From assembly GCA_049509455.1 (NCBI GenBank), contig JBEKZX010000018.1:1-27196 (forward strand): DNA of 27,196 nucleotides, read 5' to 3'. Below are positions 3,534 through 26,478 of the stretch, piece by piece; within the stretch, counting starts at the first letter, position 1; every line of letters begins with the position of its first letter. This DNA is from Conexivisphaerales archaeon. GTDB taxonomy: Archaea > Thermoproteota > Nitrososphaeria > Conexivisphaerales > DTJL01. The notes beneath the pieces are model-generated. The model worked only from the letters and a program-made list of their open reading frames with translations. It was not told the origin of the DNA and searched no databases. The position numbers and the translations under genes are program-made.

Positions 3534-3755
3534 CTCCTTCAATTAACCTATTGTCTTCAATAACACAAAGATGATTAAGCGATAGCCGTCATCGCCAGAA
3601 TGATAACAACGCCATCTTTCCTGTTGGACGTCTTGATTTCGGATATCTATCGCTGCTGGAAGGAATTACGATGTCACGAGACCTTTTGGTGTTAATTGAG
3701 AGCAGGTTGAGTTCCAGTAATCTGTCGCCTTGTGGTCAGGCATCGAAGTATATCT
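3534..3755 (+). repeat. Most complete copy of the modular intergenic repeat (modules T-B1-B2-B3-C)
   Basis: T 3534-3574, B1 3570-3598, B2 3596-3632, B3 3637-3661, C 3691-3753. Each module has at least one other copy in the window. Confidence 0.9.
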
Positions 3756-3934
3756 GTAAGTCCGACTTAGAAACGAGTACTAGTAAATCCGGACCCTCGG
3801 GGATTGCATTTGGTGGTCGTACTTGCGTGGGAATTCATGTTGTCACCAAAAGTGTCGGTCGGTTAAGGCCAAGCCAATCATGATCGTCTTGGACACCTGT
3901 TTCTGCTGAATGAGAGCCAATATCACCGACTTGA

Positions 3935-3994
3935 CTGACGATGACGACTCTATCGCTTAATCATCCTTAAGCTATTGAATACAACTGAATAATT
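3935..3994 (-). repeat. Inverted copy of modules B1+T
   Basis: The reverse complement of 3935-3965 (gatgattaagcgatagagtcgtcatcgtcag) matches 3570-3598, with the first 16 nt identical. 3961-3994 matches the reverse complement of T at 25/34. Confidence 0.85.
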
Positions 3995-3999
3995 CAGTT
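3983..3999. promoter_or_regulatory. Perfect 8-bp inverted repeat AACTGAAT-A-ATTCAGTT (operator- or terminator-like)
   Basis: Seen directly, 12 nt past the stop codon of the minus-strand pilin-like gene; function unknown. Confidence 0.35.
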
Positions 4000-4010
4000 A
4001 CAGAGGCAAC

Positions 4011-4394
4011 TCACGGCCAGACTGACCGGTACGGGTAGCTGTTCCCTGCCGCCGTCACTACTGCGACTTCATAGCTCTGTCCCGAACTGACGTTTAAGAT
4101 TGAACTCTCAATTAGCAGCTCTCGCTGAGTTCCTGACGCCAACAGGAAAGCGCCAGCTGAAGTACTGTTGAAATCCCCTTCGGCGGTGATACTGCTCATC
4201 GGCAGCGACACGTCAAACAAGACCTGAGTGACGGTCGCTGAAACAGGGCTGTTGTTGAATATGTAGATGATGAGGGTGCTGTTGGAGGCGTCTGTCGATG
4301 CGGCGAGAACGAGTTTCTCCGTGTGTGGACCGGGTATGACGAGACCAGACCCGAAGGATGCTTGAAGTCCGAAGAAGGCCACCAGCCCGACCAA
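4011..4394 (-). CDS. Archaeal pilin/archaellin-like small secreted protein, 5' end probably damaged
   Basis: The in-frame upstream sequence reads SSGKTG-YIAIAIFLVGLVAFFGLQ (class III signal-peptide-like). The domain is beta-rich and ends in YEVAVVTAAGNSY, typical of archaeal pilin-like proteins. No ATG/GTG/TTG precedes the signal. Confidence 0.6.
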   Translation of the reverse strand: MVGLVAFFGLQASFGSGLVIPGPHTEKLVLAASTDASNSTLIIYIFNNSPVSATVTQVLFDVSLPMSSITAEGDFNSTSAGAFLLASGTQRELLIESSILNVSSGQSYEVAVVTAAGNSYPYRSVWP

Positions 4395-4465
4395 GAAGAT
4401 GGCTATCGCAATGTACCCTGTCTTACCTGAACTGTCTTGGGTCGTGTAGTAGACTGAGGTATTGC

Positions 4466-4588
4466 CAAGATATGAATGTTGAGCTGATAATCGACCGAGC
4501 TTTGTTTCAGGGACGTGGGCTTGGACCTGCGAATGTGCCTGGCTCGTTCATCTTTGTGTCGTTGAAAACAATAGGTTAATTGAAGGAG
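4466..4588 (+). repeat. Modules E (4466-4486), D (4511-4547) and inverted T (4548-4588)
   Basis: E matches 25161-25182 (19/22, one-base offset at the 5' end). D ggacgtgggcttggacctgcgaatg recurs at 5590, 6296 and 12268. T matches at 38/41. Confidence 0.9.
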
Positions 4589-4783
4589 GATAGGTCAGCC
4601 TGCGGGCCCGGCGGGACCTGCCATTCACAACTGGGTCCTTGGCCTCATCTCGGCTATTCATTCGAGCCCCGGAATGCGGGTGCTCCAATGCGCGTCAGGA
4701 AGACGGGACCTCAGAGGAAGGCGCCGCATCGATGGTCAGGCGGCCGATATGTTTGCATCTCACAGCGGGGAACCGACGATGGG

Positions 4784-4789
4784 TTTAAG
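4784..4789 (+). promoter_or_regulatory. Archaeal TATA box (TTTAAG) for the cNMP-binding gene
   Basis: About 25 nt upstream of ATG 4814, which fits a leaderless archaeal transcript. Confidence 0.55.
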
Positions 4790-4813
4790 TTTCCACTTCA
4801 AAGACCTCACTTG

Positions 4814-5242
4814 ATGAAAGAAGGCGTAGGACAGCCGGACTTTGCCAGCGCCCTGGCCTCGGTTTCCCTTTTCTCCGGCCTCGGGAAGAAGGAGCTGCAG
4901 AAGGCGGCGGAGTTGGGCCAAGATCTGTCCTTCCAGGCGGGCCAGACGATAGTCAAGGAGGGAGAGCTCGGAATCGGGTTCTACGTGATACTCTCGGGGA
5001 AGGCGGAAGTCAGGAGGAGGGGCAAGGTGATGACGGCTCTAGGGAAGGGCGACTTCTTCGGCGAAATGGCGGTGTTGGGCAACCAGCCGAGGTCGGCCGA
5101 CGTCGTCGCCGTCGAGCCTACACGCTGCGCCGGTTACATCGCCCGGTCGTTCGGAGCTCTCATACACATAAGGCCCGAAATCCCCGCCGCCATCCTGGTC
5201 GAGCTAGTCAAACGCAGCGCTGCCAACGCGTCGTCAAAGTAG
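4814..5242 (+). CDS. Stand-alone cyclic-nucleotide-binding domain protein (no HTH)
   Basis: SLFSGL...IVKEGELGIGFYVILSGKAEV...LGKGDFFGEMAVLGNQPRSADVVA is a complete CAP/cNMP fold with its phosphate-binding cassette. Start moved from 4580 to ATG 4814 on the TATA position. Confidence 0.9.
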   Translation: MKEGVGQPDFASALASVSLFSGLGKKELQKAAELGQDLSFQAGQTIVKEGELGIGFYVILSGKAEVRRRGKVMTALGKGDFFGEMAVLGNQPRSADVVAVEPTRCAGYIARSFGALIHIRPEIPAAILVELVKRSAANASSK

Positions 5243-5534
5243 GGCAGCGGTCGCCGTGATCCACGGATATGCTGGTCTCTCCGGGTCCCATGGGATTTCG
5301 GCACATCGGAGAATCATCTAGTCGCGTCTAGACCAGATTGGCAACGAGGCAAGACCTTAGCCTAGGGTTCGACACGTGCATGAGCGTATCTCCTAAGAAC
5401 ACGAAGCCGAAAGACTCACGAGGACGATCAGCGGGACATCCGTCAGTCGCTAGCCGAAGGAGAAGAGAGGCGAATTGAGCCCAAGGGACAATCCAGTGCT
5501 TGGAGACGATACCTCTTCCGGCATCCCATCTTGT

Positions 5535-5654
5535 TTTTGGATATCTATCGCTGCTGGAAAAGAAATCAATATCATCAACCACCCGCCTTGGACGTAGGCT
5601 TGGATCGGCGAAATGGGCTGACTGGGTCATCTTTGTGTCATTGAAATCAATATG
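5535..5654 (+). repeat. Modules B3 (5535-5559), D (5590-5626) and partial inverted T (5627-5654)
   Basis: ggatatctatcgctgctggaa (5539-5559) is identical to 3641-3661; partial T matches at 24/28. Confidence 0.9.
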
Positions 5655-5877
5655 CAGAGGGAACGTGGGATGTACCCCATACGTCGCTATGCTTCGATTA
5701 GGATGTTGCTCTTTTGGGCTCGCGTCTGACTTTGCTGTGCAGGTAAACACATCCCACAGACATCCCACTGCTACAGAGCTACAAGCGGTCTAACATCATG
5801 AGAGTTCAATGATTGGTCTCATTCGCCATAGGCTTATATACTGAGAGAATCGACGCGGAATGAGGAAGGACTTCTAA

Positions 5878-6090
5878 TTGACAGAACCGGTAAAGGCTGC
5901 CGACAACCGCAACATGCATGCCATCATTCTGACTGTGTTAGGAATAATCCTATTGATCGCTGGACTGGCGATCATAACTATTCGTGGCGCCCCTTTTCGC
6001 GGCTCGGGACTGGGGACCCTCGCAACTCTGGCAGGTATCGTGCTACTGGCCTTCGCCTTTCTCAGGTTTAGGCAAAAGCCCCGGAAATAA
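5878..6090 (+). CDS. Small two-helix membrane protein, hypothetical
   Basis: Two hydrophobic segments and a basic C-terminus; TATA-like CTTATATA at about 5833-5840. The start could instead be ATG MHAII. Confidence 0.7.
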   Translation: MTEPVKAADNRNMHAIILTVLGIILLIAGLAIITIRGAPFRGSGLGTLATLAGIVLLAFAFLRFRQKPRK

Positions 6091-6295
6091 GCCTCCTTTC
6101 ACGGACTCGTCCATTTCCCTTTTTCTCTGAGCGTCCCTTACGTTCTGTAATCGCATCGCCCGAATCTGAACGAGGGTTTGCTCTTCTCAACTCTTGCAGT
6201 TCTTGAGTGGTGAACTTCCGATGTCATCTCTTATCGCTCCTTTCGAACAGTCATCTTATTTGATGGTAACGACAGGCAGAAGCGGGTTGTTGCCT

Positions 6296-6412
6296 GGACG
6301 TAGGCTTGGACCTGCGAATGGGCTGACTTCGTTCATCGTTGTGTTATTGGAAACGATAGGTTAACTGAGAGAGAACGAAGCCGACCAGCATCCACGGTAT
6401 TTTTGGATATCT
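6296..6412 (+). repeat. Modules D (6296-6332), inverted T (6333-6373) and B3 core (6401-6412)
   Basis: T matches at 34/41; taggcttggacctgcgaatgggc (6301-6323) is identical to 12268-12290; ttttggatatct core present. Confidence 0.9.
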
Positions 6413-6593
6413 GTTCTACTAGGACGCCAAGCCGACATATCATTTTGCCATATTTTTGTGGTTTCAATCAAGCCTTCGATTTGCCATTAAGCATTTCATC
6501 ATTTCCGACTTCGTTCATGAACACCCTCAGAACTCAGGCGCACGCCCAAGGCGGGCTACTTAAAAGCGGCTCCAGCCCACTATCCGACCGGTC

Positions 6594-8246
6594 TTGGCCG
6601 GGCAGAACCGTCCAGCCGCCATCGAGGGAAGAAACGCGCGCCCAAAGGAAATCCTGCTTGTGGCAGGCTTGCTTGCTAGCATTCTGACCTTCTTCAGCCT
6701 CTTCTCGATGTTCTACCTCAGCCAGACAATCGATGACATGCTGGATGTCACGCTGATGGATGAATTTCCTCGACTCCTCTCCACCGGGTTCGTGACCAAT
6801 GCGTGGTTCTATCCAGTCTCGGTGCAAATCAAGGATGGGTTTGACCTGAATTTCCTTCCCAGTCTGATTGGGAACGTCGTCAACTTTTTCGTCGCGGACT
6901 GGGTACTCACGCAGAGAATCGTCGCAGTGCTGCTGGTCTTCGGCACGGCTCTGTCGATGTACTACTTCCTTCGTCGTGTTGGCACCGAACCTTTCGGGGC
7001 GCTGGTCGGCGCAGTCGCCTATGGCTTCAGTGACCAATTCATCATGCGAATGCCTTCACATCTCTCTCTTCTAAGCGGCTTCGTCTTTCCGCTACTGATG
7101 CTCGCCTTGTATGAGAATAGGAAATACCTCGCAGGACTCATGCTGGGGCTCGCATACTGGTCAAGCCCCTTCTTCGGAATCATGGCACTGATGCTCTTGG
7201 CGCTGTATCTGGCGCGGGAGGTCTGGCGCAGCCGCGGAGTGAGTCGCGCACTGCTCTCCAAGTACGTAGTCGCCGGCCTCATCTTCGCTGTCATGGCCGG
7301 CCCGCTCATTCCCTTCGGCATGCCTGCTCAGTGGAGCTCCACGACCAACACGTTGCAGAGCCTTCTCTGGAGAAACCAGTACGCCTACTTCTTTCCTGGC
7401 AATCCAGTGCAGCTGTGGGAGCAGACGCCGTCGTACCTCGGACTCTCAACCGTCGTGCTGGCCGTCGTTTCCATCCTTCGCCGTCGGAGCCCCCTAAGCG
7501 TGTTCATGATCGTGTGCGGTGCAGTCTTTGCAGTCATTTCGCTCTTGCCGCCCGTGGCCTGGCCCTTCACCAGCCTTCGGGAGGTGACCCGATTCTCCAC
7601 CCTGACCACCTTTTCGTTGGCCTTCGTGGCTGGGCAGGTCTTCTCTTCCGCACCCAAGCTGCGAGTGCCGACCAAGGCCTTGATCGCCGCCATCGTGCTC
7701 GCCGTCATCATCGCAGACAACCTCGTTGCGGCACCGGCGTGGTATTTCACCCCGCAATCGGCAGGCTACCAATGGAATGACCCAGGCTTCGCCCTCATCG
7801 CCAAAGACCACGCAGGGATCGCCGAAGTAGACTTGCCGATCCTGCCCTCCACCGCGGGTCTCGTGTACTATCAGTACTACGGGGTGCTCACAGGAAAGGA
7901 TGTCGTGGACGGTGAGACCTCGGGGCTCACGCAAGTTGCCGCCTCGGACCACTTCGTCGAGGAACAGCACTTCCTAAGTCGGTTTTTCATTCCCTACATT
8001 CCCAACGTCACCAACAAGTGGCTCCTGTCCTACAATACAAGCGCATTTGCGACTCCTACACAGGCCGCGGACCTGACTCAGCTACGACAGATGGGCATCG
8101 ATTACCTCATCCTGCACACGAAGCTGTACGGGGACATCCAGGGGTCAGACGCGGCCCGCACGTATCTCGACGGCCTGGTATCGAGAGGATGGCTGAGCCT
8201 TATGTATAGCGATGCTGAAGTCGTAATCTATCAAATCGTAGTCTAG
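6594..8246 (+). CDS. Polytopic membrane protein, GT-C (YfhO/PMT-like) glycosyltransferase-like
   Basis: About 11-12 hydrophobic segments, an acidic loop after TM1 (TIDDMLDVTLMDE), AYGFS and PSYLG motifs, and a soluble C-terminal domain ending LRQMGIDYLILH...VVIYQI. TTAAAA at 6560-6565. Confidence 0.7.
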   Translation: MAGQNRPAAIEGRNARPKEILLVAGLLASILTFFSLFSMFYLSQTIDDMLDVTLMDEFPRLLSTGFVTNAWFYPVSVQIKDGFDLNFLPSLIGNVVNFFVADWVLTQRIVAVLLVFGTALSMYYFLRRVGTEPFGALVGAVAYGFSDQFIMRMPSHLSLLSGFVFPLLMLALYENRKYLAGLMLGLAYWSSPFFGIMALMLLALYLAREVWRSRGVSRALLSKYVVAGLIFAVMAGPLIPFGMPAQWSSTTNTLQSLLWRNQYAYFFPGNPVQLWEQTPSYLGLSTVVLAVVSILRRRSPLSVFMIVCGAVFAVISLLPPVAWPFTSLREVTRFSTLTTFSLAFVAGQVFSSAPKLRVPTKALIAAIVLAVIIADNLVAAPAWYFTPQSAGYQWNDPGFALIAKDHAGIAEVDLPILPSTAGLVYYQYYGVLTGKDVVDGETSGLTQVAASDHFVEEQHFLSRFFIPYIPNVTNKWLLSYNTSAFATPTQAADLTQLRQMGIDYLILHTKLYGDIQGSDAARTYLDGLVSRGWLSLMYSDAEVVIYQIVV

Positions 8247-8296
8247 CAGCCATTGGGGCGTGCAGAGGACCTGGGGCTCCCCAAGGTCTATGGAAC

Positions 8297-8380
8297 GATT
8301 AAGCGAGAGTCGTCAGAGTCAGAATGATAACAACGCCATCTTTCCTGTTGGACGTCATAATTTTGGATATCTCGTGCTGC
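8297..8380 (+). repeat. Modules B1-B2-B3
   Basis: 8320-8356 is identical over 37 nt to 3596-3632 (cagaatgataacaacgccatctttcctgttggacgtc), flanked by B1- and B3-like sequence in the same order. Confidence 0.95.
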
Positions 8381-8448
8381 AAGATAACCTTTAGTCCGAT
8401 CTTGACTTTGCAATGTCAATCTTGATACCGTCGATTCCTGACGACCGA

Positions 8449-9096
8449 TCAGGTGAGTCTTGCACTACGCCATAGGACGTCCTTCAGACTGAGCATGCGG
8501 TCCTTAGTCAGCGCGAAGATCAGATTGTAGTTCAACAATGAGGCGTACACCGCCGCCAGCGTTACCTTCGCACTGGAGTTAAGAGGTATCGACAAACCAC
8601 AAGCATCCGATCCTTTGAAGATCTGGGGGTAGTAATAGGCATCTCCAATGCACTGAGGATAACCATAGAGTATCCAGACCGACCAAATCGCAACGAAAGC
8701 GCTCAAGAAGACGACGCTCGTCCATTTGAATGACAGATGCTTCCTGAACAAGAGAATGGGAATGATGGGCGCAACCATAGTAATCAGATATTTTGTTTGG
8801 GGACCACTAAGTGAGATCGGTTTGAAGTAGTTCAGATATATCGGAAACGTGAAGTGGTATACCAATTCGTAAGTTTGAACATATGCGAAAGCGAACACAA
8901 GTGATGCAACAACGGCGTCCAGCTTGCCCATCTTTGAATTAGTCATTGAGACTTCTGCGGTGACATATAAGAGAGCCACTATGGCCAATGTGACAGGTGT
9001 TACGTCTCCCAAGAACTTGACCGAGTAGTCTCGTTGAGATAGCAGGTATAACGAATAGACCAAGGCAAGGATGGCGGCACCCCGAAGTCCCCACAT
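8449..9096 (-). CDS. Hypothetical polytopic membrane protein (about 6 TM)
   Basis: Long hydrophobic ORF; the frame extends to 9216 but ATG 9096 (MWGLRG) is the more plausible start. Confidence 0.75.
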   Translation of the reverse strand: MWGLRGAAILALVYSLYLLSQRDYSVKFLGDVTPVTLAIVALLYVTAEVSMTNSKMGKLDAVVASLVFAFAYVQTYELVYHFTFPIYLNYFKPISLSGPQTKYLITMVAPIIPILLFRKHLSFKWTSVVFLSAFVAIWSVWILYGYPQCIGDAYYYPQIFKGSDACGLSIPLNSSAKVTLAAVYASLLNYNLIFALTKDRMLSLKDVLWRSARLT

Positions 9097-9308
9097 GAGA
9101 TACTCAGAAACTCCTTTGGAATTGCTACGATCAGTGGGCCGATCTTGGATTATTTGTTCGGGGGGTGACACGCAGCACCGCCTGGAGAATGGGTCTGTTC
9201 GGCTCGCAAATAACATTTTGTGTTGGTATTTGGATCATCAAATCTCGGTGGTAAATATCTTTCAGAACCCTTAAAATATGGATATGCGCGACGGGTTGTT
9301 GTTCGAAT

Positions 9309-9728
9309 GTGAATAAAGGAACCACTCAAAGGTTAGCCATGATTTCTCTCGGGGTTTCTGCGTTGCTAGGTGTGCTCATCTTGGTCCTCGATAAGATACT
9401 ACCCAATAGGTTCCTCTTCGCATACGGCAATGTAGTCGCCCCCATCTCCCACGTCCAGGCGCTCATCGGTATGATCATCATAGACGTCATTGTGGCCATT
9501 CTGGTTTTTGTGAGACCAAGGACAGGCCTGATAATTGCAGGTGTCTGGGGCGCGCTTCAACTGCTTGCCATGGCCGCGAACCCAATAGAGGGGCCTTCGT
9601 TCGGCATGTCTGTCTCAGCCTTTGCTTCATATCTTTTCGGCCTACCAGAGTATGATGCCCGTCTTATAGTACAATTATTCACGATCTACTTTGGCTGGAA
9701 AGGTTACTTCCAATTCAAGAAAGCATAG
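9309..9728 (+). CDS. Four-helix membrane protein, free-standing homolog of the N-terminal domain of the Rieske fusion at 18384-19349
   Basis: Ungapped 70-aa alignment with 25 identities, including SH..LI.M and FASYLFGLP.YD; TTAAAATA at 9271-9278. Confidence 0.85.
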   Translation: MNKGTTQRLAMISLGVSALLGVLILVLDKILPNRFLFAYGNVVAPISHVQALIGMIIIDVIVAILVFVRPRTGLIIAGVWGALQLLAMAANPIEGPSFGMSVSAFASYLFGLPEYDARLIVQLFTIYFGWKGYFQFKKA

Positions 9729-9858
9729 ACAAGGCTCAGCATTTTTGTATTGCACATTCACCCTCACTATCAAGTGGAAAGCATCCTTGATTCGAATTGG
9801 AGGAACCTGGTTTTCAACCGAGATAGAAATATAAGGTCCAACTCACCTTCTTGCTCTA

Positions 9859-10710
9859 TTGTCGGTTGGTGTAACGGGGCCTGCCACCATCAGAGTATCT
9901 GACCATCTCTCCTTGAGGCTCTATCCTGACTCACGCCCTCACCTGTTGGAGAACGCAACACTTCAGAAGGGCTTGGTGTTGGTGTTCGACGGAGAAGAGC
10001 TTGTCGAAGAAGGCATGGGTTTAGGGACACCCGTAGTCAGGTACTCCAACGACATATACTTCTCAAGCTCCGCTCACACCTTCGTTGAACATGGAGATGG
10101 CGCCAACCAAGTCCTGAAGAAGTCCTTCCTCATCGATTCCGTGTCTAGGAAGCGCATTTGGAATGGGCCCTTCATCAATGCCCGGATTTACGACGTCCTT
10201 CATCTTGCATTTGCCCGAGCGTATATCTCAAAAGGACATCCCAACAGGTTCCTGACCAAGCTGGTTGAAATACGGAGGTCTCTAGGAATACGCACCCAGT
10301 TTGTTCAGACCCAGTCAAAGGGCAAGGTCACGATCAGCTACAGACGGTTTCCCAACGTCATCCAAGTGCGTGCTGACTTGAGCGAACTGCACAAACCAGG
10401 ATGTGAGGAAATCCTCATCATGAATGAAGCCGGATCGACATTTTTCACGAAGTATACAGACCGAAATGGTCTCGAGCTAGTGAATGATGAAATTGGAGCG
10501 TGGAATAAGGTCGAAGCTACAGAGGCTTCTCTCTCAGACTTCAGCGGAACCCTGCTTTTCAGTCTGAAGAAGACGGAAGGGGCCGATTTGTATAGGGGAT
10601 GGGAGCGGGTCAAAGGACGTCTCTCCTGGGCTGGATTGAGCTACTCCATGAAAGCTTGGAAGCCGGTTTTCGAATACTACATAAGAATACAAAGTGACAA
10701 GTATGGTTGA
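9859..10710 (+). CDS. Hypothetical soluble protein, translationally coupled to the radical SAM gene
   Basis: 283-aa ORF with protein-like composition; its stop overlaps the start of the next gene; AATATAAG at 9828-9835. Confidence 0.8.
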   Translation: MSVGVTGPATIRVSDHLSLRLYPDSRPHLLENATLQKGLVLVFDGEELVEEGMGLGTPVVRYSNDIYFSSSAHTFVEHGDGANQVLKKSFLIDSVSRKRIWNGPFINARIYDVLHLAFARAYISKGHPNRFLTKLVEIRRSLGIRTQFVQTQSKGKVTISYRRFPNVIQVRADLSELHKPGCEEILIMNEAGSTFFTKYTDRNGLELVNDEIGAWNKVEATEASLSDFSGTLLFSLKKTEGADLYRGWERVKGRLSWAGLSYSMKAWKPVFEYYIRIQSDKYG

Positions 10711-12052
10711 CCTTCTTCTAATTTACCCGTACTACAACGACAACAATTCAATCTTCAAATTCCCTCCTCTCGGCGTAGGCTACATCGCATCCTACGTGAA
10801 GAAACATGGCTATTCCGTGTCTATCATAGATTGTACGTTCATGCGTGAACAGGATGCCGTGAGCAAGGCAAGAAGCATGAAGCCCAGAGTTATCGGAATC
10901 TACTCGATGCTGAGCATGAAAGACACGGCAATCAGACTAGCCAAGGCGCTGAAAGGTCAAGCCGAATTGACGATTGCCGGCGGGCCCCTGCCGACATCTT
11001 TGCCCGAATCGTTCCTGGACGATTTCGACATAGTGGTCCTTCGCGAAGGTGAAGAGACGGTACTTGAAATCCTTGCCGCGCTCGATAGAGGTAGGGGTAT
11101 CTTCGAGGTCGAAGGCATAGCATACCGGAACCCTGACGGATCCACTGTCAAGACACCCACCCGAGAATTGAACCCTAGCTTGGATTCCCTGCCTTTTCCA
11201 GAGAGAGAGATGTATGACCATGAGAGGTACAAGAGCTATTATCGAAGGCACCATGGCTATACAATCACATCAATCATGACTTCTAGAGGGTGTCCATTCG
11301 ACTGTGACTTCTGCAGCCGTCCAGTCTTCGGGAACGTCTTCAGGAGCAGGTCCGCCGCGAACGTAGTTGATGAAATGGAGATAATCAAGGAATTTGGCTA
11401 TGACAGGATATGGATAGCTGACGACATCTTTCCCCTCACCAAGAAGATCGGTTTAGAAATCTGTGATGAGATAACGAAAAGAAAGCTGGACATCTCCTGG
11501 GAATGCCTCTGCAGGTCCGACCTTCTGGACTTGGAAATCGCATCAAAGATGAAGGCTTCTGGATGTCATCGCGTCTTCTTCGGCTTGGAGTCGGGGAACA
11601 ATGAGGTTCTAAGACTGATGAGGAAGCGCATCACCACCAACCAAGCTCGCGAGGCGGTGGAGACTGTGAACTCTGTTGGAATCAGAGCTGGGGCGTTCTT
11701 CATACTGGGCTATCCTGGAGAGTCAAACGATACCATGCTCGATACGATGAGGTTCGCCTCTTCTCTCCCGTTAGACTACCTTTCATTCACCGTGCCATAT
11801 CCGCTCCCCGGCACCGCGCTTTTTGAAAGACTCAAGGACAGGATATTGGTCGACGAGTGGAAGAAGCCAAGATCAGCCTTTGTTGACCATGTTCTTCTCT
11901 ACAGATCTGAGTTCTCCATGGGCAAGTTGAGATTCGGTATTATTATGGCGACGTCTCAGCACCTATTAAGAAAACACCTCGGTCCAGGATATCCCCTAGT
12001 GGGGAAACCCATTGACGTCATTACTGGCCGCGTCTTCACAGCACTAAGGTAA
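10703..12052 (+). CDS. B12-binding domain / radical SAM protein (class B methylase-like)
   Basis: N-terminal PPLGVGYIASY B12 domain with GGPLPT and IVVLREGEET; SRGCPFDCDFC CxxxCxxC motif; FFGLESG and FILGYPGE motifs. ATG 10703 or GTG 10694. Confidence 0.93.
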   Translation: MVDLLLIYPYYNDNNSIFKFPPLGVGYIASYVKKHGYSVSIIDCTFMREQDAVSKARSMKPRVIGIYSMLSMKDTAIRLAKALKGQAELTIAGGPLPTSLPESFLDDFDIVVLREGEETVLEILAALDRGRGIFEVEGIAYRNPDGSTVKTPTRELNPSLDSLPFPEREMYDHERYKSYYRRHHGYTITSIMTSRGCPFDCDFCSRPVFGNVFRSRSAANVVDEMEIIKEFGYDRIWIADDIFPLTKKIGLEICDEITKRKLDISWECLCRSDLLDLEIASKMKASGCHRVFFGLESGNNEVLRLMRKRITTNQAREAVETVNSVGIRAGAFFILGYPGESNDTMLDTMRFASSLPLDYLSFTVPYPLPGTALFERLKDRILVDEWKKPRSAFVDHVLLYRSEFSMGKLRFGIIMATSQHLLRKHLGPGYPLVGKPIDVITGRVFTALR

Positions 12053-12267
12053 GAGTCCAACCCATCTTATTCTAGGGCACCGGTCCATCATAGCACCTTG
12101 AGCGGAGAAACTCATCAATAGTCTCTTCTCGGCGCACGGCTGAGGCTGTTCGAGCGATGAGGACTTTCCTTGACCTGTTCAGCCTTCCAAATCACATCTC
12201 GCCAAGCGTCTCATGAGGTCACCCCCCTTTTACACGGAGCGACTCTGACCGACCGCGGACCCCACCT

Positions 12268-12290
12268 TAGGCTTGGACCTGCGAATGGGC
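12268..12290 (+). repeat. Isolated module D core
   Basis: 23-nt exact match to 6301-6323. Confidence 0.85.
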
Positions 12291-12477
12291 CTGATTCAGA
12301 TTTAAGTTTCCCCAACTTGCAGGCTCGACAAACACGAATTGTGTTTTCATAGGTACCTTTGGTTTATGCTTCAAGCTTCAAGTGATATCCTGTCGTGTCG
12401 TTCCCCATCGAGGCTTCAGATGATATCTTCACAGCGGAGTATATGTGGTGGCTGAACCACCAATCTTCTGTACAGGT

Positions 12478-12600
12478 AACGATACCTTAGAAACTAGCGT
12501 TCCTGGATGTTATGCGGTCGGAGACGGCGCTGGACAGACCAGAGGGCTGGTGCCAGCTCCAATCACCGGAATCCTCGTTGGCAGAGACATTGCTCCCTAT
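12478..12600 (+). pseudogene. C-terminal remnant of a COG2509/HI0933-like NAD(FAD)-dependent dehydrogenase
   Basis: TLETSVPGCYAVGDGAGQTRGLVPAPITGILVGRDIA resembles the conserved terminal FAD-binding motif (LETS..G.YA.GDGAG.TRGL...); the rest of the gene is absent. Confidence 0.65.
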
Positions 12601-12658
12601 GTTGAGAATTGCATTTTCGGCCTAGACCGATGTCGGCAAGGCGAGCCGGGCGACACGT

Positions 12659-16573: not shown

Positions 16574-16580
16574 TTTATAT
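16574..16580. promoter_or_regulatory. TATA element (TTTATAT/ATATAAA) in the divergent promoter between the beta-helix operon and the wHTH gene
   Basis: Only AT-rich patch in a GC-rich 78-nt gap; 34 nt from ATG 16540 and 39 nt from ATG 16619. Confidence 0.55.
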
Positions 16581-16618
16581 CGCTGGCGCGCTTCGCCATT
16601 TCCTGGCAGAGCGATAGC

Positions 16619-17277: not shown

Positions 17278-17325
17278 TCCTGCCCGGCGCCCCCCTGCAG
17301 GGATGGGCTAGGGGACCGGCCCTGC

Positions 17326-18114: not shown

Positions 18115-18365
18115 TCTCCGTGCCGTCCCGGCGTAGCAATTGTTTTAGACTTTAAGACATCCGCCTTGCCCAGTTCGTCGAGTTGGAATGCCAGCACCGC
18201 GGGCGCACCGGCCCTTTCGAATCGCGGGAACTCCACTATCTTGCTAACCGAAAGCATTTTGCATGCTATTTCCAGCTCGGCGTTCTTCTCGTCGATCATG
18301 ACGACAACTGCCGCCTTCTCAAGAAGACCGAGCACGTGCCTGGCTGAGTGGATGCAGAGATTCAC
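18111..18365 (-). CDS. Possible small hypothetical ORF between the second Rieske and the regulator
   Basis: Co-oriented and fills the gap, with an ATGA overlap at 18111-18114; no recognisable motif. Confidence 0.3.
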   Translation of the reverse strand: MNLCIHSARHVLGLLEKAAVVVMIDEKNAELEIACKMLSVSKIVEFPRFERAGAPAVLAFQLDELGKADVLKSKTIATPGRHGE

Positions 18366-18383
18366 AAAGCAGAGGCGGACGCT

Positions 18384-19349: not shown

Positions 19350-19737
19350 CGCCTCAATTCCACAAGGATGTTCGCCAGCGGCTCCGAGGTGCCCCCACGG
19401 CCCTGGAGACGGGGTTACCCATCCAAGAGTCGCCGAGAAGGGCCCCTTAGTTAAACTGTATTGGCATTCTTGCAGCCGAGCTCGGCCAGCGTGGCTGGCG
19501 CGGAGCACCTTCGTCCCACTACCCGAGTCCCTACCATGGGTCACGTCTGGTTCTCATCCCGCCGGCGAAGCAACTTCTATAAGCGGCGCACTCCGCTCCC
19601 CGAATTATGGCTTCATGGACAAGCCTTCTTGCTGTCCTGCCTCTCCTTGGCCGTGGACGTCCCCGAGATGTTGCGGGCCCGACACGTCGAAAACGGCATA
19701 GCAAGAGGAATCTCCACCCTGGTAGGATAGGCCCATC

Positions 19738-20436
19738 TTGAACCCAAAGGTCTCAACCGAATTACACGCGCGCTCCGGTCTCCTCTCCAACTTCATCCTG
19801 GGAAGTCAGGATGGACTTGTGAACGTCCTCGGAATCCTGTTGGGACTGACCGCCGCCTCGAGCGGCATCCGACTGATCTTCGTCGCAGCTCTTGCAGCAC
19901 TCGTCGCTGAATCGATCTCAATGGGGGCGGTGGCCTACACATCCACCCTGGCGAGGAGGAAGCATTACCTGAAAGAGGTCAGCCGCGAAGAAGCCGAGAT
20001 GAGGGAGGTGCCACAGATCGAAAGGGATGAGGTGAGGGGAATCTTCCAAGACTGGGGGTACGAGGGCGAGGAGCTCGAGCGTGCGACCGACCTGATTGCC
20101 TCCAAGCCGAAGGCCTGGCTCGAGTTCATGATGTCCTACGAGCTCCGGCTTGAGCGGGTCGACGAATCCGAACCAAGGAGGAACTTCTTGATCGTGCTGG
20201 GCTCCACCGTCTTCGGTTCGATCATCCCTCTGGTGCCTTACCTCCTGGTGGGCAATGACGTCCTCCTGGGTGCGCTTGGCTCGGTGGCGGTCAGCGGCGT
20301 AGCCCTCTTCATTATCGGGTACTACGAGGCGAGGACGACAGTCGGGTCGATATGGAAGAGTGGGCTCCAGATGGCTGCAATTGGATTGGCCGCTGGGCTG
20401 GCTGGCTTCCTGGTAGGGCATCTAGTCGGTGCCTAG
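19738..20436 (+). CDS. VIT1/CCC1 family iron/manganese transporter
   Basis: FILGSQDGLV, AESISMGAVAY, Glu-rich cytoplasmic segment (EVSREEAEMREVPQIERDE) and GSIIPLVPY. Confidence 0.93.
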   Translation: MNPKVSTELHARSGLLSNFILGSQDGLVNVLGILLGLTAASSGIRLIFVAALAALVAESISMGAVAYTSTLARRKHYLKEVSREEAEMREVPQIERDEVRGIFQDWGYEGEELERATDLIASKPKAWLEFMMSYELRLERVDESEPRRNFLIVLGSTVFGSIIPLVPYLLVGNDVLLGALGSVAVSGVALFIIGYYEARTTVGSIWKSGLQMAAIGLAAGLAGFLVGHLVGA

Positions 20437-20467
20437 CCAGCTTAGCTATCTCTAGGTCACATGACGA

Positions 20468-20517
20468 AGCAGATTGAGTCCCAGTACTCTAGTGAAATGT
20501 CAGGCATCGAAGTACAT
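20468..20517 (+). repeat. Module C copy
   Basis: agcagattgagtcccagtactct...gtcaggcatcgaagtacat aligns to 3701-3753. Confidence 0.8.
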
Positions 20518-20601
20518 ACAGTGATTGAACCACGAATCTCCTGTACAAATAGCGACGGGGCTAGCTAGCGGGGGCTTTCGTGACTCCTCGCCTGTCTTCC
20601 A

Positions 20602-21801
20602 TCATCGAGTCATCGTCCTTCTGAACACGGGCACGGCGATCGAAGTCATGACGATCCCGAACGCTATCATCACCGCGAGGTCAATGGTCAGATCCGGTAT
20701 CCCCGCCCCCAGCACCATGACCTTCCTCAGGGCATCCGACGCGTAGGTCAGGGGTAACACCTTCGAGATGTCCTGCATATACCACGGCATCTCCTGTATG
20801 GGGAAGAACACGCCGCTGAGGAACATCATCGGGAAGATCAACGTCGTCACCATCATGGTCGCTGTCCCCTGGTCCTTCGCGAACGAAGTGATTACGATGC
20901 CCAGGCCGACGAAGCTGAATACACCCAGCAGGAGCAGCCCGAAGACCAACAGTATGTTTCCGTGAATCGTGACGCCGAACAGGCCAACCGCCAGCGCCAG
21001 GATGATGACCCCCTGCAGCAAGCCCCTAGCGGTCTGGCCCAGGGCCTTCCCCAGTATTATGGAGAGCCTGTTGATCGGCGCCACCATCATCCCGTCCATG
21101 GTGCCGACCTCCTTCTCCTGTGATATGGCCTGCGGCAACCCCGTCATCACGCTCATCATGACGGTCATCATCATTATTCCCGGAGCTACAAAATTGAAGT
21201 AATTGGTGCTTCCGGAGACGATACCCTGTACCTGCACCTTGTAGGGCTCTACGATCGCCAGGGAGTTGCTTTCATTGACGGCCGAGCTGAGCAGCTGGAC
21301 TTTCTGTTGAGCCAGCATCGTGCCCATCTCACCAAATACGCTGGAGAGGACCGTCTCGATGGTCGCGGATATCTGCGGATTGGACTGGTCCGTCACTATG
21401 GTGATGGTCCCCTGTTCTCCAGCAAGGATGCTGGCAGTGAAGTTGCTGGGGATGATGATCCCACCTTCGACGTCACCTTTCTGAATCATGGTCTTGACGT
21501 CGCTCAAGCTTGACGCGTTGGAGAGGACCATCATCCCGGTCTTGTTGTTGATCTGCTGGAGTATCGCAGTGAAAGTCTGGCTCCCGATGGTGGAACCGTT
21601 GTACCCGGCATCCTGGTTCACAATGGCTACAGGAACGTTGCTCAAGGAGGTGGCGTTGGATGGAAATATGAAGCCAACCATGCCCATCATGAACAGAGGC
21701 ATTATGATAAGAAAGGCCAGCATGAGCCTGTTCCTGAACAATTCCAGTAGGTCCTTCCAAGCTATTCGCAGGCTATGTGAAAGCAGAGTTTTCGCGCCCA
21801 T
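20602..21801 (-). CDS. ABC-2 type exporter permease
   Basis: N-terminal TM, extracytoplasmic VAIVNQD domain, EKEVGTMDGMMVAP and FLSGVFFP...LPLTYASDALR. Start ATG 21801, GTG 21810 or TTG 21825. Confidence 0.93.
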   Translation of the reverse strand: MGAKTLLSHSLRIAWKDLLELFRNRLMLAFLIIMPLFMMGMVGFIFPSNATSLSNVPVAIVNQDAGYNGSTIGSQTFTAILQQINNKTGMMVLSNASSLSDVKTMIQKGDVEGGIIIPSNFTASILAGEQGTITIVTDQSNPQISATIETVLSSVFGEMGTMLAQQKVQLLSSAVNESNSLAIVEPYKVQVQGIVSGSTNYFNFVAPGIMMMTVMMSVMTGLPQAISQEKEVGTMDGMMVAPINRLSIILGKALGQTARGLLQGVIILALAVGLFGVTIHGNILLVFGLLLLGVFSFVGLGIVITSFAKDQGTATMMVTTLIFPMMFLSGVFFPIQEMPWYMQDISKVLPLTYASDALRKVMVLGAGIPDLTIDLAVMIAFGIVMTSIAVPVFRRTMTR

Positions 21802-21821
21802 CTCTCTCACCCATTCCTCCT

Positions 21822-22826
21822 TCAAGGCCTCATGAACCGTCGGCGCGGCGCGATCGCTATCTTCTGGTCCGCAGCATCTCTTACCTCATGGCCGGTTAGG
21901 TGCAAGAAGACATCCTCGAGGGTGGGCTGCAGGTTCTCCATCGATGCGATCTTGCCGCCCTTCGCCCTTATCGCGTCGACTACGCTGTCGAACGCGTCGT
22001 CGCCGTGAGCAAGGACCTTGATATGAGTGGAGTTCTCCTGTGAGACGGAGCCCACACTCTCCAACGCTTTCAACCCGGCGAGGAGATCGGGTGTAATGTT
22101 CGAGATATCCAGTTTCAATACAATAGTGTTCGCCCCTGTAATCATCTTCTTCAGGTTCGTCGATGTGTCGAGGGCCGCGATCTTCCCGTGGTCCACGATG
22201 GCTATGCGGTCACATAGCATATCGGCGTCGACCATCGTATGCGTCGTTATGATCACGGTGGTGTGATTCTCTCTGTTGAGTTTCTTTATGAAGTCCCTGA
22301 TTTCGACGGAGGATTGGGGGTCTAAACCTAGCGTCGGCTCGTCAAGGAAGAGGACCTGCGGCATGTTGAGCAGCGCACGTATCACGTTCATCCTCTGTCG
22401 CATGCCCGTCGAGAAGGTGCCTACCTGGGCGTTCTTCCACTTTGTCAGCTGTACCAGCTCAAGGAGCTCGTCAGTTCTCTTCGCCAGGACGTCCTTGGGC
22501 ATGTCGAATAGGCTCCCGAAGAACCAGAGGTTCTCTCTGGCCGTGAGCCGATCGTACATTATCATCTTCTCCGAGACGATGCCGATCAGCTTCCTCACTT
22601 CGGTGTCATCCTTCACGATGTCGTAACCGCCGACCCTGGCAGTCCCCTTCGTGGGCCTTGACAAAGTGGAGAGCATCCGGAGGGTCGTGCTCTTCCCTGC
22701 CCCGTTGGGTCCCAGCAGGCCGAACATCTCGCCCTTCTTGACGTCGAACGAAATGTCGTCAACTGCCACGAAATCGCCGAACATCTTCGTAAGGTCCTCA
22801 ACCTCGATTATTGATTCGTTTTCCAT
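21822..22826 (-). CDS. ABC exporter ATP-binding subunit (DrrA-like)
   Basis: Walker A GPNGAGKS, signature FSTGMRQR, Walker B LFLDEPT, H-loop TTH and C-terminal PTLEDVFL. Confidence 0.96.
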
Positions 22827-22854
22827 GATGGATTCGCCCGGATACTAACCGCTG

Positions 22855-22885
22855 CGATATATCCGAACAGGATATAAATATATCG
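22855..22885. promoter_or_regulatory. Inverted repeat CGATATAT-N15-ATATATCG overlapping the TATA box: putative PadR operator in a divergent promoter
   Basis: Perfect 8-bp arms seen directly; TATAAATA at 22873-22880 lies about 30 nt before ATG 22910. Confidence 0.6.
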
Positions 22886-22909
22886 AAAGGATACTCTCGC
22901 AGGAAAGCG

Positions 22910-23497
22910 ATGCTCAGGCATAATGAGGAGAGGACGGCCTCGAACTGGATCAAGGAGGCCTCAAAAGGGTACATTCGTGTCGCGGTGCTGATCCTCCTCA
23001 GCAAGCACCCTGCTCACGGCTATGAGATCATGAAGGAGATCAAAGACAGGACGAAGGGCTTGTGGATGCCCACCCCTGGCGGCGTCTACCCCATACTTAG
23101 AGACCTAGAGAAGGCCGGATACATAAAGGGGAAATGGTCCACTCAGAGAAACAGGAAGATAAAGGTCTACGAAATCACCGAAGCAGGGAGGCTCATCTTC
23201 AAACGGGCCATCGAAAAGCAGAGCGAGCTGGCCAACAGCATGAACACCCTGTTCAGAGAGTTCGCGAGAGACGTCTTGAACATAGGGCCAACAACGCTGC
23301 CGATGCCCATGATGCCAACCCCATTCTCCCCGTTCCTTGAGGAGGAGCATGGAGGTAAGGGCGGGACAGAGGGCCTGGTGCAGAAACGACGCTACTTGGA
23401 ACGCACCATCACAACGTTGAAGGAGGAGCTTCGAAAGACGGACGATGAGCTGGCAAGAAGACGTCCTGACGGAAGTGGGTTAGCCAAGCAGAAATGA
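22910..23497 (+). CDS. PadR family transcriptional regulator
   Basis: VLILLSKHPAHGYEIMKEI...PTPGGVYPILRDLEKAGYI...KVYEITEAG. Confidence 0.95.
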   Translation: MLRHNEERTASNWIKEASKGYIRVAVLILLSKHPAHGYEIMKEIKDRTKGLWMPTPGGVYPILRDLEKAGYIKGKWSTQRNRKIKVYEITEAGRLIFKRAIEKQSELANSMNTLFREFARDVLNIGPTTLPMPMMPTPFSPFLEEEHGGKGGTEGLVQKRRYLERTITTLKEELRKTDDELARRRPDGSGLAKQK

Positions 23498-24126
23498 AGA
23501 TCGCTATCTTTGGAGCGACCGGAGGAACGGGCAAGCAGCTCATCGAACAGGCGCTTGAAGCAGGGTATGAAGTTGTAGCCTACGCGCGCAATCCATCCAA
23601 GCTCGACATCCGCCATGAGCATTTGAAGGTTATTCAGGGCGAATTGGCCGATGCGGCGTTGATCGAGAGTGCGGTGAGCGGGTCAAAGGCAGTGATCAGC
23701 GTGCTGGGTCCACGGGGTGGTTCAAAGGGAAGGTCAGTTACACAAGGGATGAAGAACATCATTGCCTCCATGAAGAAACAAGGCGTAAGCAGACTTGTCG
23801 TCTCCTCTACCTTGAGCGCTAAGGATCCGAACGACAGGTCGGATTTCAAGACCCGGACTATGGTCGGAATTGTCAAGTTCACGATGCGCGATGCCTACGA
23901 AGACATAGTCAGCGCGGCGGAATTGGTCCGCAATTCCGACCTCGATTGGACGATCGTGCGCCTGTCAATCCTTAACAATGACGCTAAATCTGGAAAAGTC
24001 AGGGCTGGCTACGTAGACAAGGGCGAAGTAGGCACTTCGATTTCCCGCGCGGACGTCGCTGACTTTATGCTCAAGCAAGTGGAAGACACGAAGTACTTAC
24101 GGCGCGCGCCAGCGATAAGCAACTAG
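23494..24126 (+). CDS. NAD(P)H-binding oxidoreductase (flavin/biliverdin reductase B-like, atypical SDR)
   Basis: MKIAIFGATGGTGK Rossmann motif, DLDWTIVR and ISRADVADFML; ATGA overlap with padR. Confidence 0.93.
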   Translation: MKIAIFGATGGTGKQLIEQALEAGYEVVAYARNPSKLDIRHEHLKVIQGELADAALIESAVSGSKAVISVLGPRGGSKGRSVTQGMKNIIASMKKQGVSRLVVSSTLSAKDPNDRSDFKTRTMVGIVKFTMRDAYEDIVSAAELVRNSDLDWTIVRLSILNNDAKSGKVRAGYVDKGEVGTSISRADVADFMLKQVEDTKYLRRAPAISN

Positions 24127-24140
24127 GAACTGATGGTTTC

Positions 24141-24229
24141 GTGTTACGCATCGAAGTATACCTTGTAGTTCCACTTTGAGCTGATTAAGCGTGAGCGCCA
24201 CCTACAGGTGGACACTAGTCAGTCCGGAC
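24141..24229 (+). repeat. Degenerate patch of C core, B1 core and a further shared 16-mer
   Basis: gcatcgaagtata (24148-24160); tgattaagcg (24182-24191); actagtcagtccggac (24214-24229) matches 3779-3794 at 14/16. Confidence 0.65.
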
Positions 24230-24409
24230 GGTCGGAGATCAAATCTGGAAGTCGTATTTGACCTGGGATGCAAGCTGCCACGTAGGCGTGGCTGTTGTCC
24301 AAGACCGAGCTGACCTTGTCGTGCATATGGTGTTAGGAAGGCGAGTCGTTCCTAGGAATCTGTGAGCTCGAATGAGTAGAGAACCTTATTACTACTTCGT
24401 ACCAGGCGC

Positions 24410-24895
24410 CTAGAAATGACCCATGATGAAATCCCTGATTCCCTGATGATTGGCCAGATGACTGATGATGCTCCTCGTGGCTCTTACTACTTGCGGATCG
24501 AAGTACCTCGACATGATCAGGGAAAGGACGAATGAGAGAATACCCAGAGCCATTACCTCGTAGACATTTATCGTGCCAAGCAACGCCGTAGCAGCGATCG
24601 TAATCGCCGCGCCTATGAGGCCCATGATGGAGGCTCTTACTATGAAGTAGAGTCTTTGCAATCTCGTGGAATACAGCAGAGCCTTTATAATCACTCTCCT
24701 TTCGACATCGGTCTTCTCTCCGAGCGACGCGGTCTGTATCTCCAACAAGACCCCTTTTGTGTTTTCAAGATCGGACAAGAGCAAGGCTTTCTTCGCGTAA
24801 AGGCTCGCTGACAGATCCCAAGACTTTGCCGTTTCAAGCTCCGACTGGATCCTTTGAGCCATTGCTCCTATTTCGTCATCTATTTTGGTCGTCAT
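24410..24895 (-). CDS. Hypothetical membrane protein (coiled N-terminus, two TM helices)
   Basis: 161-aa ATG ORF with protein-like composition and no competing gene. Confidence 0.75.
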   Translation of the reverse strand: MTTKIDDEIGAMAQRIQSELETAKSWDLSASLYAKKALLLSDLENTKGVLLEIQTASLGEKTDVERRVIIKALLYSTRLQRLYFIVRASIMGLIGAAITIAATALLGTINVYEVMALGILSFVLSLIMSRYFDPQVVRATRSIISHLANHQGIRDFIMGHF

Positions 24896-25160
24896 TGTCC
24901 CACCGAATCAGGAACCCCATACATGAATCTGGAAGCCCACTATTAGACAGTTGCGTCACCCGTGAGGTCGGTCTATAGGGTCGCCAAGAGCCATTTTCTA
25001 GAGCTAACAACCGATCTAACTTGTTAGGGGGCTCTCTTGCGGCTTGACCCAGGGCAGCACGAGAGCAATCACAGCAAAGCTGAGGATTGCCGTGGCGATT
25101 ATGTTTGTCCGTCCTCCAAAGATGGGGCTTCTCAATCATAACCGGACGCTGATGGACCCA

Positions 25161-25299
25161 CCGAGACATGAATGTTGAACTGGCTTGGAGATCTATTGCT
25201 GCGGAGAAGGATCACGACATCGCGCGTCTTGTAGGCGTTAATTGAAAACAGGTTGAGTTCCATTAATCTAGCGACGTGTGGTCACGCATCGAAGTATAT
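25161..25299 (+). repeat. Modules E, degenerate B3 and C
   Basis: 25237-25299 matches 3691-3753 at 55/63; the ungapped similarity extends back to about 25189 vs 3643. Confidence 0.92.
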
Positions 25300-25527
25300 G
25301 TCGTGGTTGGACCACTACATATCAGCTAGCGTGGAAGGCATGACCAGCCCTGCGCCGCTGGGTGATAGGGCGGTGCCGCTGAAGGCGCTTCGCGAGATTG
25401 TGGAGACCTACATGGGGAAACCCCAAATACAATCCTCATGTTCAAGGATTGCGCAGAAGCCTAGCTCCCGGACGGACTTGGGCAACTTTATTAGGAGACG
25501 AAAGGCAATCGCTACCGATCAGTCAGC

Positions 25528-26208
25528 ATGCCCTATTGTGAGAACTGTGGAAAAGAGGTCCCCCCAACCTCTAAATTCTGCAGGAACTGCGGAGCTCCCC
25601 AGCCCATCACACCCAGCGAAGTTCAGCCCACGCCACCTCCTCCGCCCCCACAGGCTCAAATCGCGCAGGCACCTCAGCCTATTATGCCCGCGTCGCAGAC
25701 CCAACCTGAGACCGTCGTTGGGGCGATACCATTGAGACGGCAGAGGTCGCTGGGAAGACAAGACTCCTTCGTGGGAGTGGTGACCAGCCAACGCTTGATC
25801 ATCGCTCAGATGACCAACGAAATGATGAAGGAGGCCGCGCAACAGGCAAGGGAGCTGGCCAAAGCCGCCGGCAAGGGATTCCTTGGTCAATGGTCAGACC
25901 AGCTGAAGGCCACGTTTGGCTACACGAGAAGATACCTGACCATGGAGCCATCAGCCGTGCTCTCCGAGACGCCGGGCAACTTCGGAATCGGGAACGGCGC
26001 CATTGGCGAGATCAAGGTGGAGCTGAAGCGCATAAGCACACAGGACCAGAACCGCCGTGAGTTCGAGATCAAGATAGAATCGAGCTCCGGCGAATTCGAC
26101 TTCAGGATGGACGAAGACGACGACTACGCGAACCTCCTGAAACAGGTGTATGGAGAAAGGGTCAAGATGCCGTTCGGCTACTCCTTCCACCCTGTCAAGA
26201 TTGGGTAG
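25528..26208 (+). CDS. Zinc-ribbon domain protein with a Pro/Gln linker and a PH-like soluble domain
   Basis: MPYCENCG...SKFCRNCG double CxxC, poly-Pro linker, GVVTSQRLIIA. Confidence 0.9.
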   Translation: MPYCENCGKEVPPTSKFCRNCGAPQPITPSEVQPTPPPPPPQAQIAQAPQPIMPASQTQPETVVGAIPLRRQRSLGRQDSFVGVVTSQRLIIAQMTNEMMKEAAQQARELAKAAGKGFLGQWSDQLKATFGYTRRYLTMEPSAVLSETPGNFGIGNGAIGEIKVELKRISTQDQNRREFEIKIESSSGEFDFRMDEDDDYANLLKQVYGERVKMPFGYSFHPVKIG

Positions 26209-26453
26209 TAATGAGGAGTGTTTTCCGCACAAGTGGGGGTTGGTGCGTCGGGTGATGGCGAGCGCGACATCTGCGCGGTTCTGCCGCAGCTGCGGAAGGA
26301 GCTTTTCGCGATGAGAAGTTGGACGGCTCTTACACCCCATCGTGAGCCTGACGGTGGACTCCCTCGAATCCCAGAAACATGAAGCCTGGTGACACGGCCT
26401 CCTGACGCCGAAGCCGCGAACCTCAAGCCGTCCAAGTTCGCCTCTCTCGATAT

Positions 26454-26478
26454 TTTTGGATATCTACTGCTGCTGGAA
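26454..26478 (+). repeat. Module B3 copy
   Basis: ttttggatatctactgctgctggaa vs 5535-5559: 23/25. Confidence 0.85.

Follow-up and report, generated by a model that had tools for sequence, protein, structure and literature searches.

The question raised by this locus is why a small set of short intergenic sequences recurs, in patch after patch, between the accessory genes of an archaeal contig. The window (the whole stretch of 27,196 nucleotides that was analysed, contig JBEKZX010000018.1 of assembly GCA_049509455.1) is contig C51 of a metagenome-assembled genome (MAG) of a Conexivisphaerales archaeon, which amounts to 2.05 Mb in 140 contigs, is 95.5% complete and contains TBP genes. A sequence-only reading of the window had described the patches as mosaics of modules, named T, B1, B2, B3, C, D and E, in varying order and orientation, and had offered three interpretations: a recombination-site toolkit tied to gene acquisition, a decayed family of miniature inverted-repeat transposable elements (MITEs), or a dispersed non-coding RNA (ncRNA) or regulatory element. 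Here, comparison of sequences within and between genomes leads us to propose, with a probability of roughly 0.58, that the modules together make up one polar junction element of non-integron gene-cassette arrays, which occupy accessory regions in one Conexivisphaerales genus. D is the constant part of this element, while B1/B2 and B3 are optional extensions to its left, T or a further module, F, is an optional extension to its right, and C is an alternative partner of B3.

A repeat search of the window, together with iterated nhmmer profiles, recovered all module families at the positions that had been reported, including the 37-nt exact match of B2, which lies within the copies at 3570-3635 and 8297-8359. 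Zero copies were found in the GC-rich block at 12.7-20.4 kb, from which the modules had indeed been said to be missing. For the 16-nt core of D, allowing up to three mismatches, the window contains four matches versus 0.33 expected, a number reached by no shuffled sequence, and for B3 three matches versus 0.00 expected. The modules are also, as previously noted, unlike clustered regularly interspaced short palindromic repeats (CRISPR), D sites being 209-5967 bp apart with genes in between and no Cas1 being encoded in the genome. Searching the complete MAG, as the earlier reading had advised, located modules on dozens of contigs: the profiles retrieved 59 copies of D on 26 contigs, 27 of T on 17, 28 of B3 on 16, 17 of F on 14, five of B1/B2 on four, five of C on three and two of E on two, and 72 copies of D were obtained at no more than two mismatches to the 16-nt core. 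Fragmentation of the MAG cuts arrays at D. The description of varying order and orientation proved to be overstated, as the genome-wide order is nearly fixed, running from B1/B2 through B3 and D to T or F, or from B3 to C, with few exceptions (D was followed by T 13 times, B3 by D eight times, D by F seven times and B1/B2 by B3 four times). With two exceptions, namely T at 3531 and the pair of B1 and T at 3935-3994, all modules of the window are on the plus strand.

The consensus of D is RCGTRGGCTTGGACCTGCGAA, followed by 0-4 variable bases and GGGC, with sharp conservation from approximately position -6 to +20 (position tables of 72 and 183 sites were compiled). D represents a 26-nt site, the majority of its copies being devoid of a recognisable partner module, and classes of left flank and right flank are freely combined at it.

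The most regular property of D is its direction. Among all adjacent pairs of D within 8 kb of each other, 148 are co-oriented and two opposite (148/150), at a median spacing of 758 bp (interquartile range 548-1447 bp). This arrangement falls within the criterion applied to clusters of attC sites lacking integron-integrases (CALINs), which asks for two or more sites of equal direction separated by less than 4 kb (PMC9668308). Agreement within contigs is exemplified by C58 (eight forward), C69 (seven reverse) and C112 (five forward), and in a scan of metagenomes, in which 77 peat or soil contigs carried D, every contig with at least two sites was uniform in direction (53/53). In a relative assembled in 10 contigs, designated G004, at least 12 clusters of D are present and the direction flips between clusters, several times along one contig; D polarity is therefore local and not replichore-wide, and replication-linked polarity was rejected as its cause. 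One locus of this relative (L015:9894-10633, at G004:C2:103.9-104.6 kb) contains two D arrays placed back to back, approximately 590 bp apart, with an inverted D and B3 on the left and a forward B3 and D on the right, an arrangement that an inversion between sites may have left behind.

The second line of evidence concerns the places where homology between strains and species begins and ends. When compared with G004, the segment at 5626-6331 (T, a gene for 70 amino acids and D) matches contig C5 at 82%, and the segments at 3961-4538 and 4003-4587 (a surface-protein gene, E and D) match contigs C2 and C4, the identities of these three blocks ranging from 77 to 82%; the segments at 9779-12105 and 20602-24126 match other places at 91-92%, the latter corresponding to G004:C3 at 92%. 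Because these blocks map to different contigs and places in G004, the window is a mosaic relative to this sister species. A cassette encoding a cyclic nucleotide monophosphate (cNMP)-binding protein has a paralogue with the same D-T head on contig C69. At the level of strains, two indels were observed in sequences that are otherwise 99% identical, L231 lacking C93:6951-8020 (1070 bp) and L176 lacking C93:10175-10467 (293 bp), and in both of them exactly one D-to-D unit is gone and one hybrid D is left. Furthermore, cassettes recur between two D sites at 90-98% identity with different neighbours (L167 versus C112, L175 versus C93, and C58 versus C98). Internal ends of homology lie within 45 nt of D in 51 of 106 cases versus 5.7% expected, these ends not being mutually independent, and D is kept at approximately 97% per position as compared to 77-92% for shared cassettes. 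A shared array boundary with G004 beside the PAS histidine kinase gene was also considered, and was ruled out by the orientations on closer reading. Aligned in this manner, the sequences show that D-to-D units behave as wholes, which are acquired, lost and transferred from one array, strain or species to another, and that D separates successive cassettes, the DNA on its left being part of one and that on its right part of the next. The recombination-site toolkit of the sequence-only reading fits these data, D being where homology between strains and species breaks and where single packets come and go.

Each cassette contains a single self-contained gene or a few of them, located on either strand (genes outside the window being called with a crude codon-bias caller). 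Their cargo includes ABC-2 and MFS transporters, aldo-keto reductases, methyltransferases, helix-turn-helix regulators, cNMP-binding proteins and adenylate cyclase, and most commonly two families of membrane-anchored coiled-coil surface proteins, with 23 and nine members and no Pfam match, in which an N-terminal helix is combined with a Q-rich coiled coil and a variable, beta-rich part (e.g. L187:2328-3830 and L210:4465-5718). The gene at 4011-4394 of the window (minus strand) belongs to the nine-member family.

A third line of evidence is a strand asymmetry in D, which is predicted to form a 6-bp stem (CGTRGG / CCTGCG) around CTTGGA. Two positions of this stem are tolerant: among 72 sites, the first is T.G in 61 and C-G in six, and the second, R.T, is G.T in 36 and A-T in 31, pairs which would be C.A and Y.A mismatches on the opposite strand. 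The D-forward strand is also the better folded of the two (-12.2 versus -8.4 kcal/mol, p = 6e-11). The folding predictions suggest that one folded strand of D is recognised.

Taken as a mechanism, D would be the exchange site of a site-specific recombination system acting in trans, whose substrate is probably the folded single strand on which D reads forward, because the hairpin tolerates wobble pairs, and each inserted cassette would bring its own D, by which arrays would stay one-directional. As to the putative enzyme, a rough split assigns a minority share to a tyrosine recombinase encoded elsewhere, a distinctly smaller one to an RNA-guided DEDD (IS110-type) recombinase, and the remainder to something unrecognised or to plain homologous exchange. 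A more specific version, to which we give somewhat less than even odds, is an integron-independent form of archaeal gene capture, in which a strand-specific hairpin in D would be cut and rejoined by a non-IntI enzyme encoded off-array, cassettes with their own promoter and D being inserted at a resident D, and in which one-directional arrays would be built up whose units are exchanged within and between species; this enzyme could be an RNA-guided DEDD recombinase or a member of an unrecognised family.

Several observations weigh against site-specific exchange at D. Half of the homology breakpoints are located away from D. The crossover between L231 and C93 falls between position -1 and the spacer, i.e. 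inside the D core, and that between L176 and C93 approximately 25-30 nt to the right of the core, the downstream partner being a degenerate D; as these positions differ, no single fixed cleavage point is demonstrated, and homologous or microhomology exchange between D copies is a live alternative for at least some events. The signal of the outer stem is weak, and the D core is too invariant for a covariation test. Neither a serine recombinase nor Cas1 was found in the genome, the recombinase set of which consists of one tyrosine recombinase, one IS200/IS605 element (TnpA plus TnpB), three TnpB genes and two IS110-family genes. The only match to PF00589, a 455-aa protein with a zinc ribbon on contig C100, was rejected as the cassette enzyme, its family being spread over many genera that lack D and being absent from the arrays. 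Finally, no recombinase was found beside arrays when the tyrosine recombinase, TnpA, TnpB and three IS110 proteins were compared by tblastn with 315 kb of D-bearing metagenome DNA, in which the sole match was an IS110 copy abutting a truncated T.

Other candidates for the origin of the site or its mover were likewise discarded. An IS110 recombinase acting as the cassette mover was rejected on the basis that no guide-like complement of D was found flanking the intact IS110-family element of contig C86, that elsewhere in the genome guide-like matches to D amounted to chance-level 9-mers only, and that this genome has no mini-elements with the IS subterminal repeats. No tRNA of the genome resembles D, which dismisses a tRNA-derived att site.

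The genomic distribution of D is narrow. Each of the four further genomes of the genus contains D, at 24-60 copies (24, 44 and 58 in three of them, and mostly the variant GGCTTGGGGCTGCGAA in the fourth, G003), and it is not found in 56 additional genomes of the same family, order and class, except for a single chance-level match with one mismatch (in G015). Controls with the reversed pattern gave 0 matches, and among 185,579 species genomes D was multi-copy only in Conexivisphaerales/Nitrososphaerota MAGs. T is restricted to the genus in the same way. G003 carries few copies, almost exclusively with the variant core (C95:3955-5094, C11:358 and C51:2645), and may represent a diverged or decaying version of the system. 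Viruses and plasmids were rejected as carriers, there being nothing in the plasmid and phage collections and 21 viral-contig matches that were chance-level and had no extended D context.

Insertion sequence (IS) elements provide a separate view of the junction. G004 contains three copies, 93-95% alike, of an element of approximately 1.35 kb with a DEDD transposase (IS1111/IS110 type; L046:1993-3294, L047:2665-4020 and L048:1345-2709, on G004 contigs C7 and C3), which are flanked on one side by the left half of B3 and on the other by its right half, followed by the usual linker and D. Insertion took place between CTATYGC and TGCTGGAA, at a single point and in a single orientation, and one of the copies sits between two D sites in the manner of a cassette. 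The element possesses 13-bp subterminal inverted repeats (ATGAAAGACGCCC) with extensions of 7 bp on the left and 3 bp on the right, in line with the rules of the IS1111 family (PMC11187229). It shares with the IS1111/IS110 family the DEDD transposase, the subterminal repeats and the one-orientation insertion into a conserved repeat, but differs from IS1111 in the long non-coding region upstream of its gene, which is usual for IS110-type rather than IS1111-type elements (PMC11187229), and these elements are guests in the junction rather than the junction itself. Within these 190 nt of upstream non-coding sequence lie TTTCCAGCA, which is complementary to the right flank over 9 nt, and copies of the two junctions. 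Guides of the seekRNA or bridge-RNA kind would have matches of this sort (PMC11208160), and the element is a candidate natural seekRNA/bridge-RNA system in Nitrososphaerota.

A second IS110 lineage is represented by a gene at C52:30888-31250, inside which the contig ends; the gene starts 50 nt beyond a T that breaks off at its tenth base, and this junction of truncated T and IS110 (G000:C52:30799-31252, L043:2300-2753) recurs at L229:3014-3697 and L049:1962-2153 (G001 and a metagenome contig). T is a flank and not part of the IS, because it is missing beside the related IS genes of other genera, and the junction sequences make it likely that this lineage inserted into T. A second T-abutting IS110 copy, next to D on C52, was rejected, as the neighbouring gene encodes a THUMP-domain protein. 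In the window the B3 copies are empty and no IS1111/IS110 elements are present. Works cited in the reference list of PMC11187229 deal with IS1111-family members that target integron attC sites and transposon ends. By analogy with these relatives, homing of IS1111/IS110 elements on B3 and T fits the reading of the modules as a junction, and is independent, though indirect, support for recombination-site behaviour, though it does not identify the cassette enzyme.

The explanation that survives best next to a cassette junction is a dispersed repeat of selfish or structural nature, made up of D and its partner modules and resembling repetitive extragenic palindromic sequences (REPs) and bacterial interspersed mosaic elements (BIMEs), with the shuffling being a by-product of homologous or microhomology recombination and slippage; we consider this unlikely, yet it is the most serious of the rivals. 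In its favour, the two mapped crossovers lie at different positions, homology-driven events would map to the 16-nt core because it is the longest shared identity, the vicinity of the arrays yielded no enzyme, and BIMEs have the same modular mosaic design, in which short intergenic palindromic units combine with few motifs into patches. REPs typically occur as inverted pairs in alternating orientation and are tied to a gene for a REP-associated tyrosine transposase (RAYT). In contrast, D forms no inverted pairs, its copies being co-oriented and bounding swappable genes, and no RAYT was found: the only Y1 transposase of the genome is the tnpA of an ordinary IS200/IS605 element with tnpB, the ends of which are unlike D. 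Homologous exchange and a dispersed repeat also leave unexplained the near-perfect co-orientation, the conservation of the core across species at about 97% next to drifting flanks, and the origin of new copies.

That the modules encode a structured ncRNA, or act as regulatory sites which bind protein and are linked to accessory genes, is a far less probable explanation. It could draw on the strand-specific hairpin with G.U-type pairs, on the dyad TATTG-N4-CAATA in T and on the TATA-like stretch in C. D is intergenic in 57 of 59 profile copies; neither its direction nor its distance bears a relation to the flanking genes, the direction being opposite to both the upstream and the downstream gene in 15 cases, the same as both in 13, and mixed in 12 and 12, and in intervals containing a single gene (n = 106) that gene was on the strand of D in 49 and on the other strand in 57. 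Genes following T are found on either strand, and D or T as a promoter or 5' leader was rejected since their direction is unrelated to neighbouring genes. Rfam gave no match even at E values up to 5, fold z-scores of whole junction composites were inconsistent, and the breakpoints at D are not explained by regulation, leaving the ncRNA or regulatory element of the earlier reading unsupported.

That the patches are decayed MITEs or relics of IS ends, for instance with 3534-4588 as a non-autonomous element bounded by 41-bp inverted T copies that are 93% complementary and with IS110-family genes beside T and inside B3, is the least probable of the explanations offered, given that the flanks of 3534-4588 have no target-site duplication, that this T pair is the only inverted one and T elsewhere follows D in one direction, that T and D do not occur in genera carrying related IS110 genes, that no module matches an IS end (B3 is the split target of the G004 elements, whose ends are different 13-bp subterminal repeats), that plasmid and phage collections gave no match, and that the patches are variable in composition.

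Regarded as cassette arrays, the D clusters are best compared with integrons and CALINs. They have in common small units of accessory genes, a one-way site, spacing well under 4 kb, a content that varies by strain and species, units that contain no gene, a majority of arrays having no recombinase alongside, and a junction targeted by IS1111-type elements. They differ in that D is a 26-nt, sequence-conserved site, the 72- and 183-site position tables of which show no R and L boxes and no RYYYAAC / GTTRRRY ends; that no IntI was found in the genome, whose one PF00589 match was not examined for the IntI-specific insertion, or in the 315 kb of array DNA; that genes here lie on either strand (49 versus 57) whereas those of integrons generally have one orientation; that many units are multi-gene, at least 12 clusters exist per genome and the flanks B, T, F and C are optional; and that the two mapped crossovers do not share a fixed point. 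Archaeal integrons and CALINs as reported by Ghaly et al. (2022; PMC9668308) have canonical attC sites and genes in the same orientation. In the literature searched, nothing similar to the D arrays is described for Nitrososphaerota.

The features of the window are listed below.

Coordinates of modules, cassettes and gene blocks in the 27,196-nt window
Position	Strand	Feature	Recovered by
230-3484		Large PAS histidine kinase gene	
3.5-12.4 kb		Low-GC stretch with small or poorly annotated genes	
3531..3574	-	T, the only inverted copy, abutting B1	Repeat and profile search
3570..3635	+	B1/B2, 37-nt exact match with 8320-8356	Repeat and profile search
3635..3666	+	B3, empty copy of the site occupied by an IS1111-type element in the sister species	
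3663..3772	+	C, following B3	Repeat and profile search
3935..3994	-	Inverted B1 and diverged T (3950-3994); start of the block common to G004:C2 and G004:C4	
4011..4539	+	Cassette 1: surface-protein gene (4011-4394, minus), E (4395-4488), D (4513-4539)	
4465 and 25161		E matches	Module search
4548..5618	+	Cassette 2: T (4548-4589), cNMP-binding gene (~4811-5242), B3 (5533-5567), D (5592-5618)	
5627..6324	+	Cassette 3: T (5627-5668), gene for 70-aa membrane protein (5878-6090), D (6298-6324)	
6332..12291	+	Cassette 4, multi-gene: T (6332-6376), weak B3 (6401), D (12268-12291)	
6594-8246, 8449-9216 (minus), 9309-9728, 9859-10710, 10694-12052		Genes of cassette 4	
8297-8387	+	B1/B2/B3 patch inside cassette 4 (B1/B2 8297-8359; B3 from 8358)	
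12304..12442	+	F, alternative right-hand partner of D	
12.7-20.4 kb		GC-rich block with cytochrome b, Rieske protein and others	
20.4 kb to window end		Further accessory genes	
20467..20535	+	Partial C between two blocks mapping to different places of G004:C3	
24141..24200	+	Partial C (24143-24179) and partial B1, directly after the 20602-24126 block	
25161..25319	+	Partial E, weak B3-like stretch (25182), then C (25210-25319)	
26451..26485	+	B3, solitary	

Some further observations concern the genes and ends of the window. The PAS histidine kinase gene contains an internal duplication spanning 1080 bp (820-1262 versus 1900-2342, 72-79% identity), which corresponds to PAS repeat units, and window positions 1-849 match C93:26-874 at 94%, the latter being a PAS kinase paralogue or strain variant that adjoins a D array. 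Positions 1-122 and 27075-27196 are exact 122-nt overlaps with the ends of C79/C35 and of C95; these are assembly-graph overlaps, the contig ending in repeats with ambiguous neighbours. The right end of the window (26910-27196) also overlaps the start of C118 at 99% over 287 nt. C118 carries the IS200/IS605 element (tnpA at 5106-5504, tnpB at 4003-5109), which, judging from this overlap, probably sits a few kb past the right end of the window.

Among machines that stockpile and swap single genes, integrons alone are well understood, and they depend on one enzyme family and one kind of site. If the D junctions are what we propose, cassette-type gene capture would have evolved more than once, with a second, unrelated design in soil archaea. 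Such a design would add a site and probably a recombinase to those known, and would account for how surface proteins, transporters and regulators come to vary in these little-known, uncultured archaea of peat.

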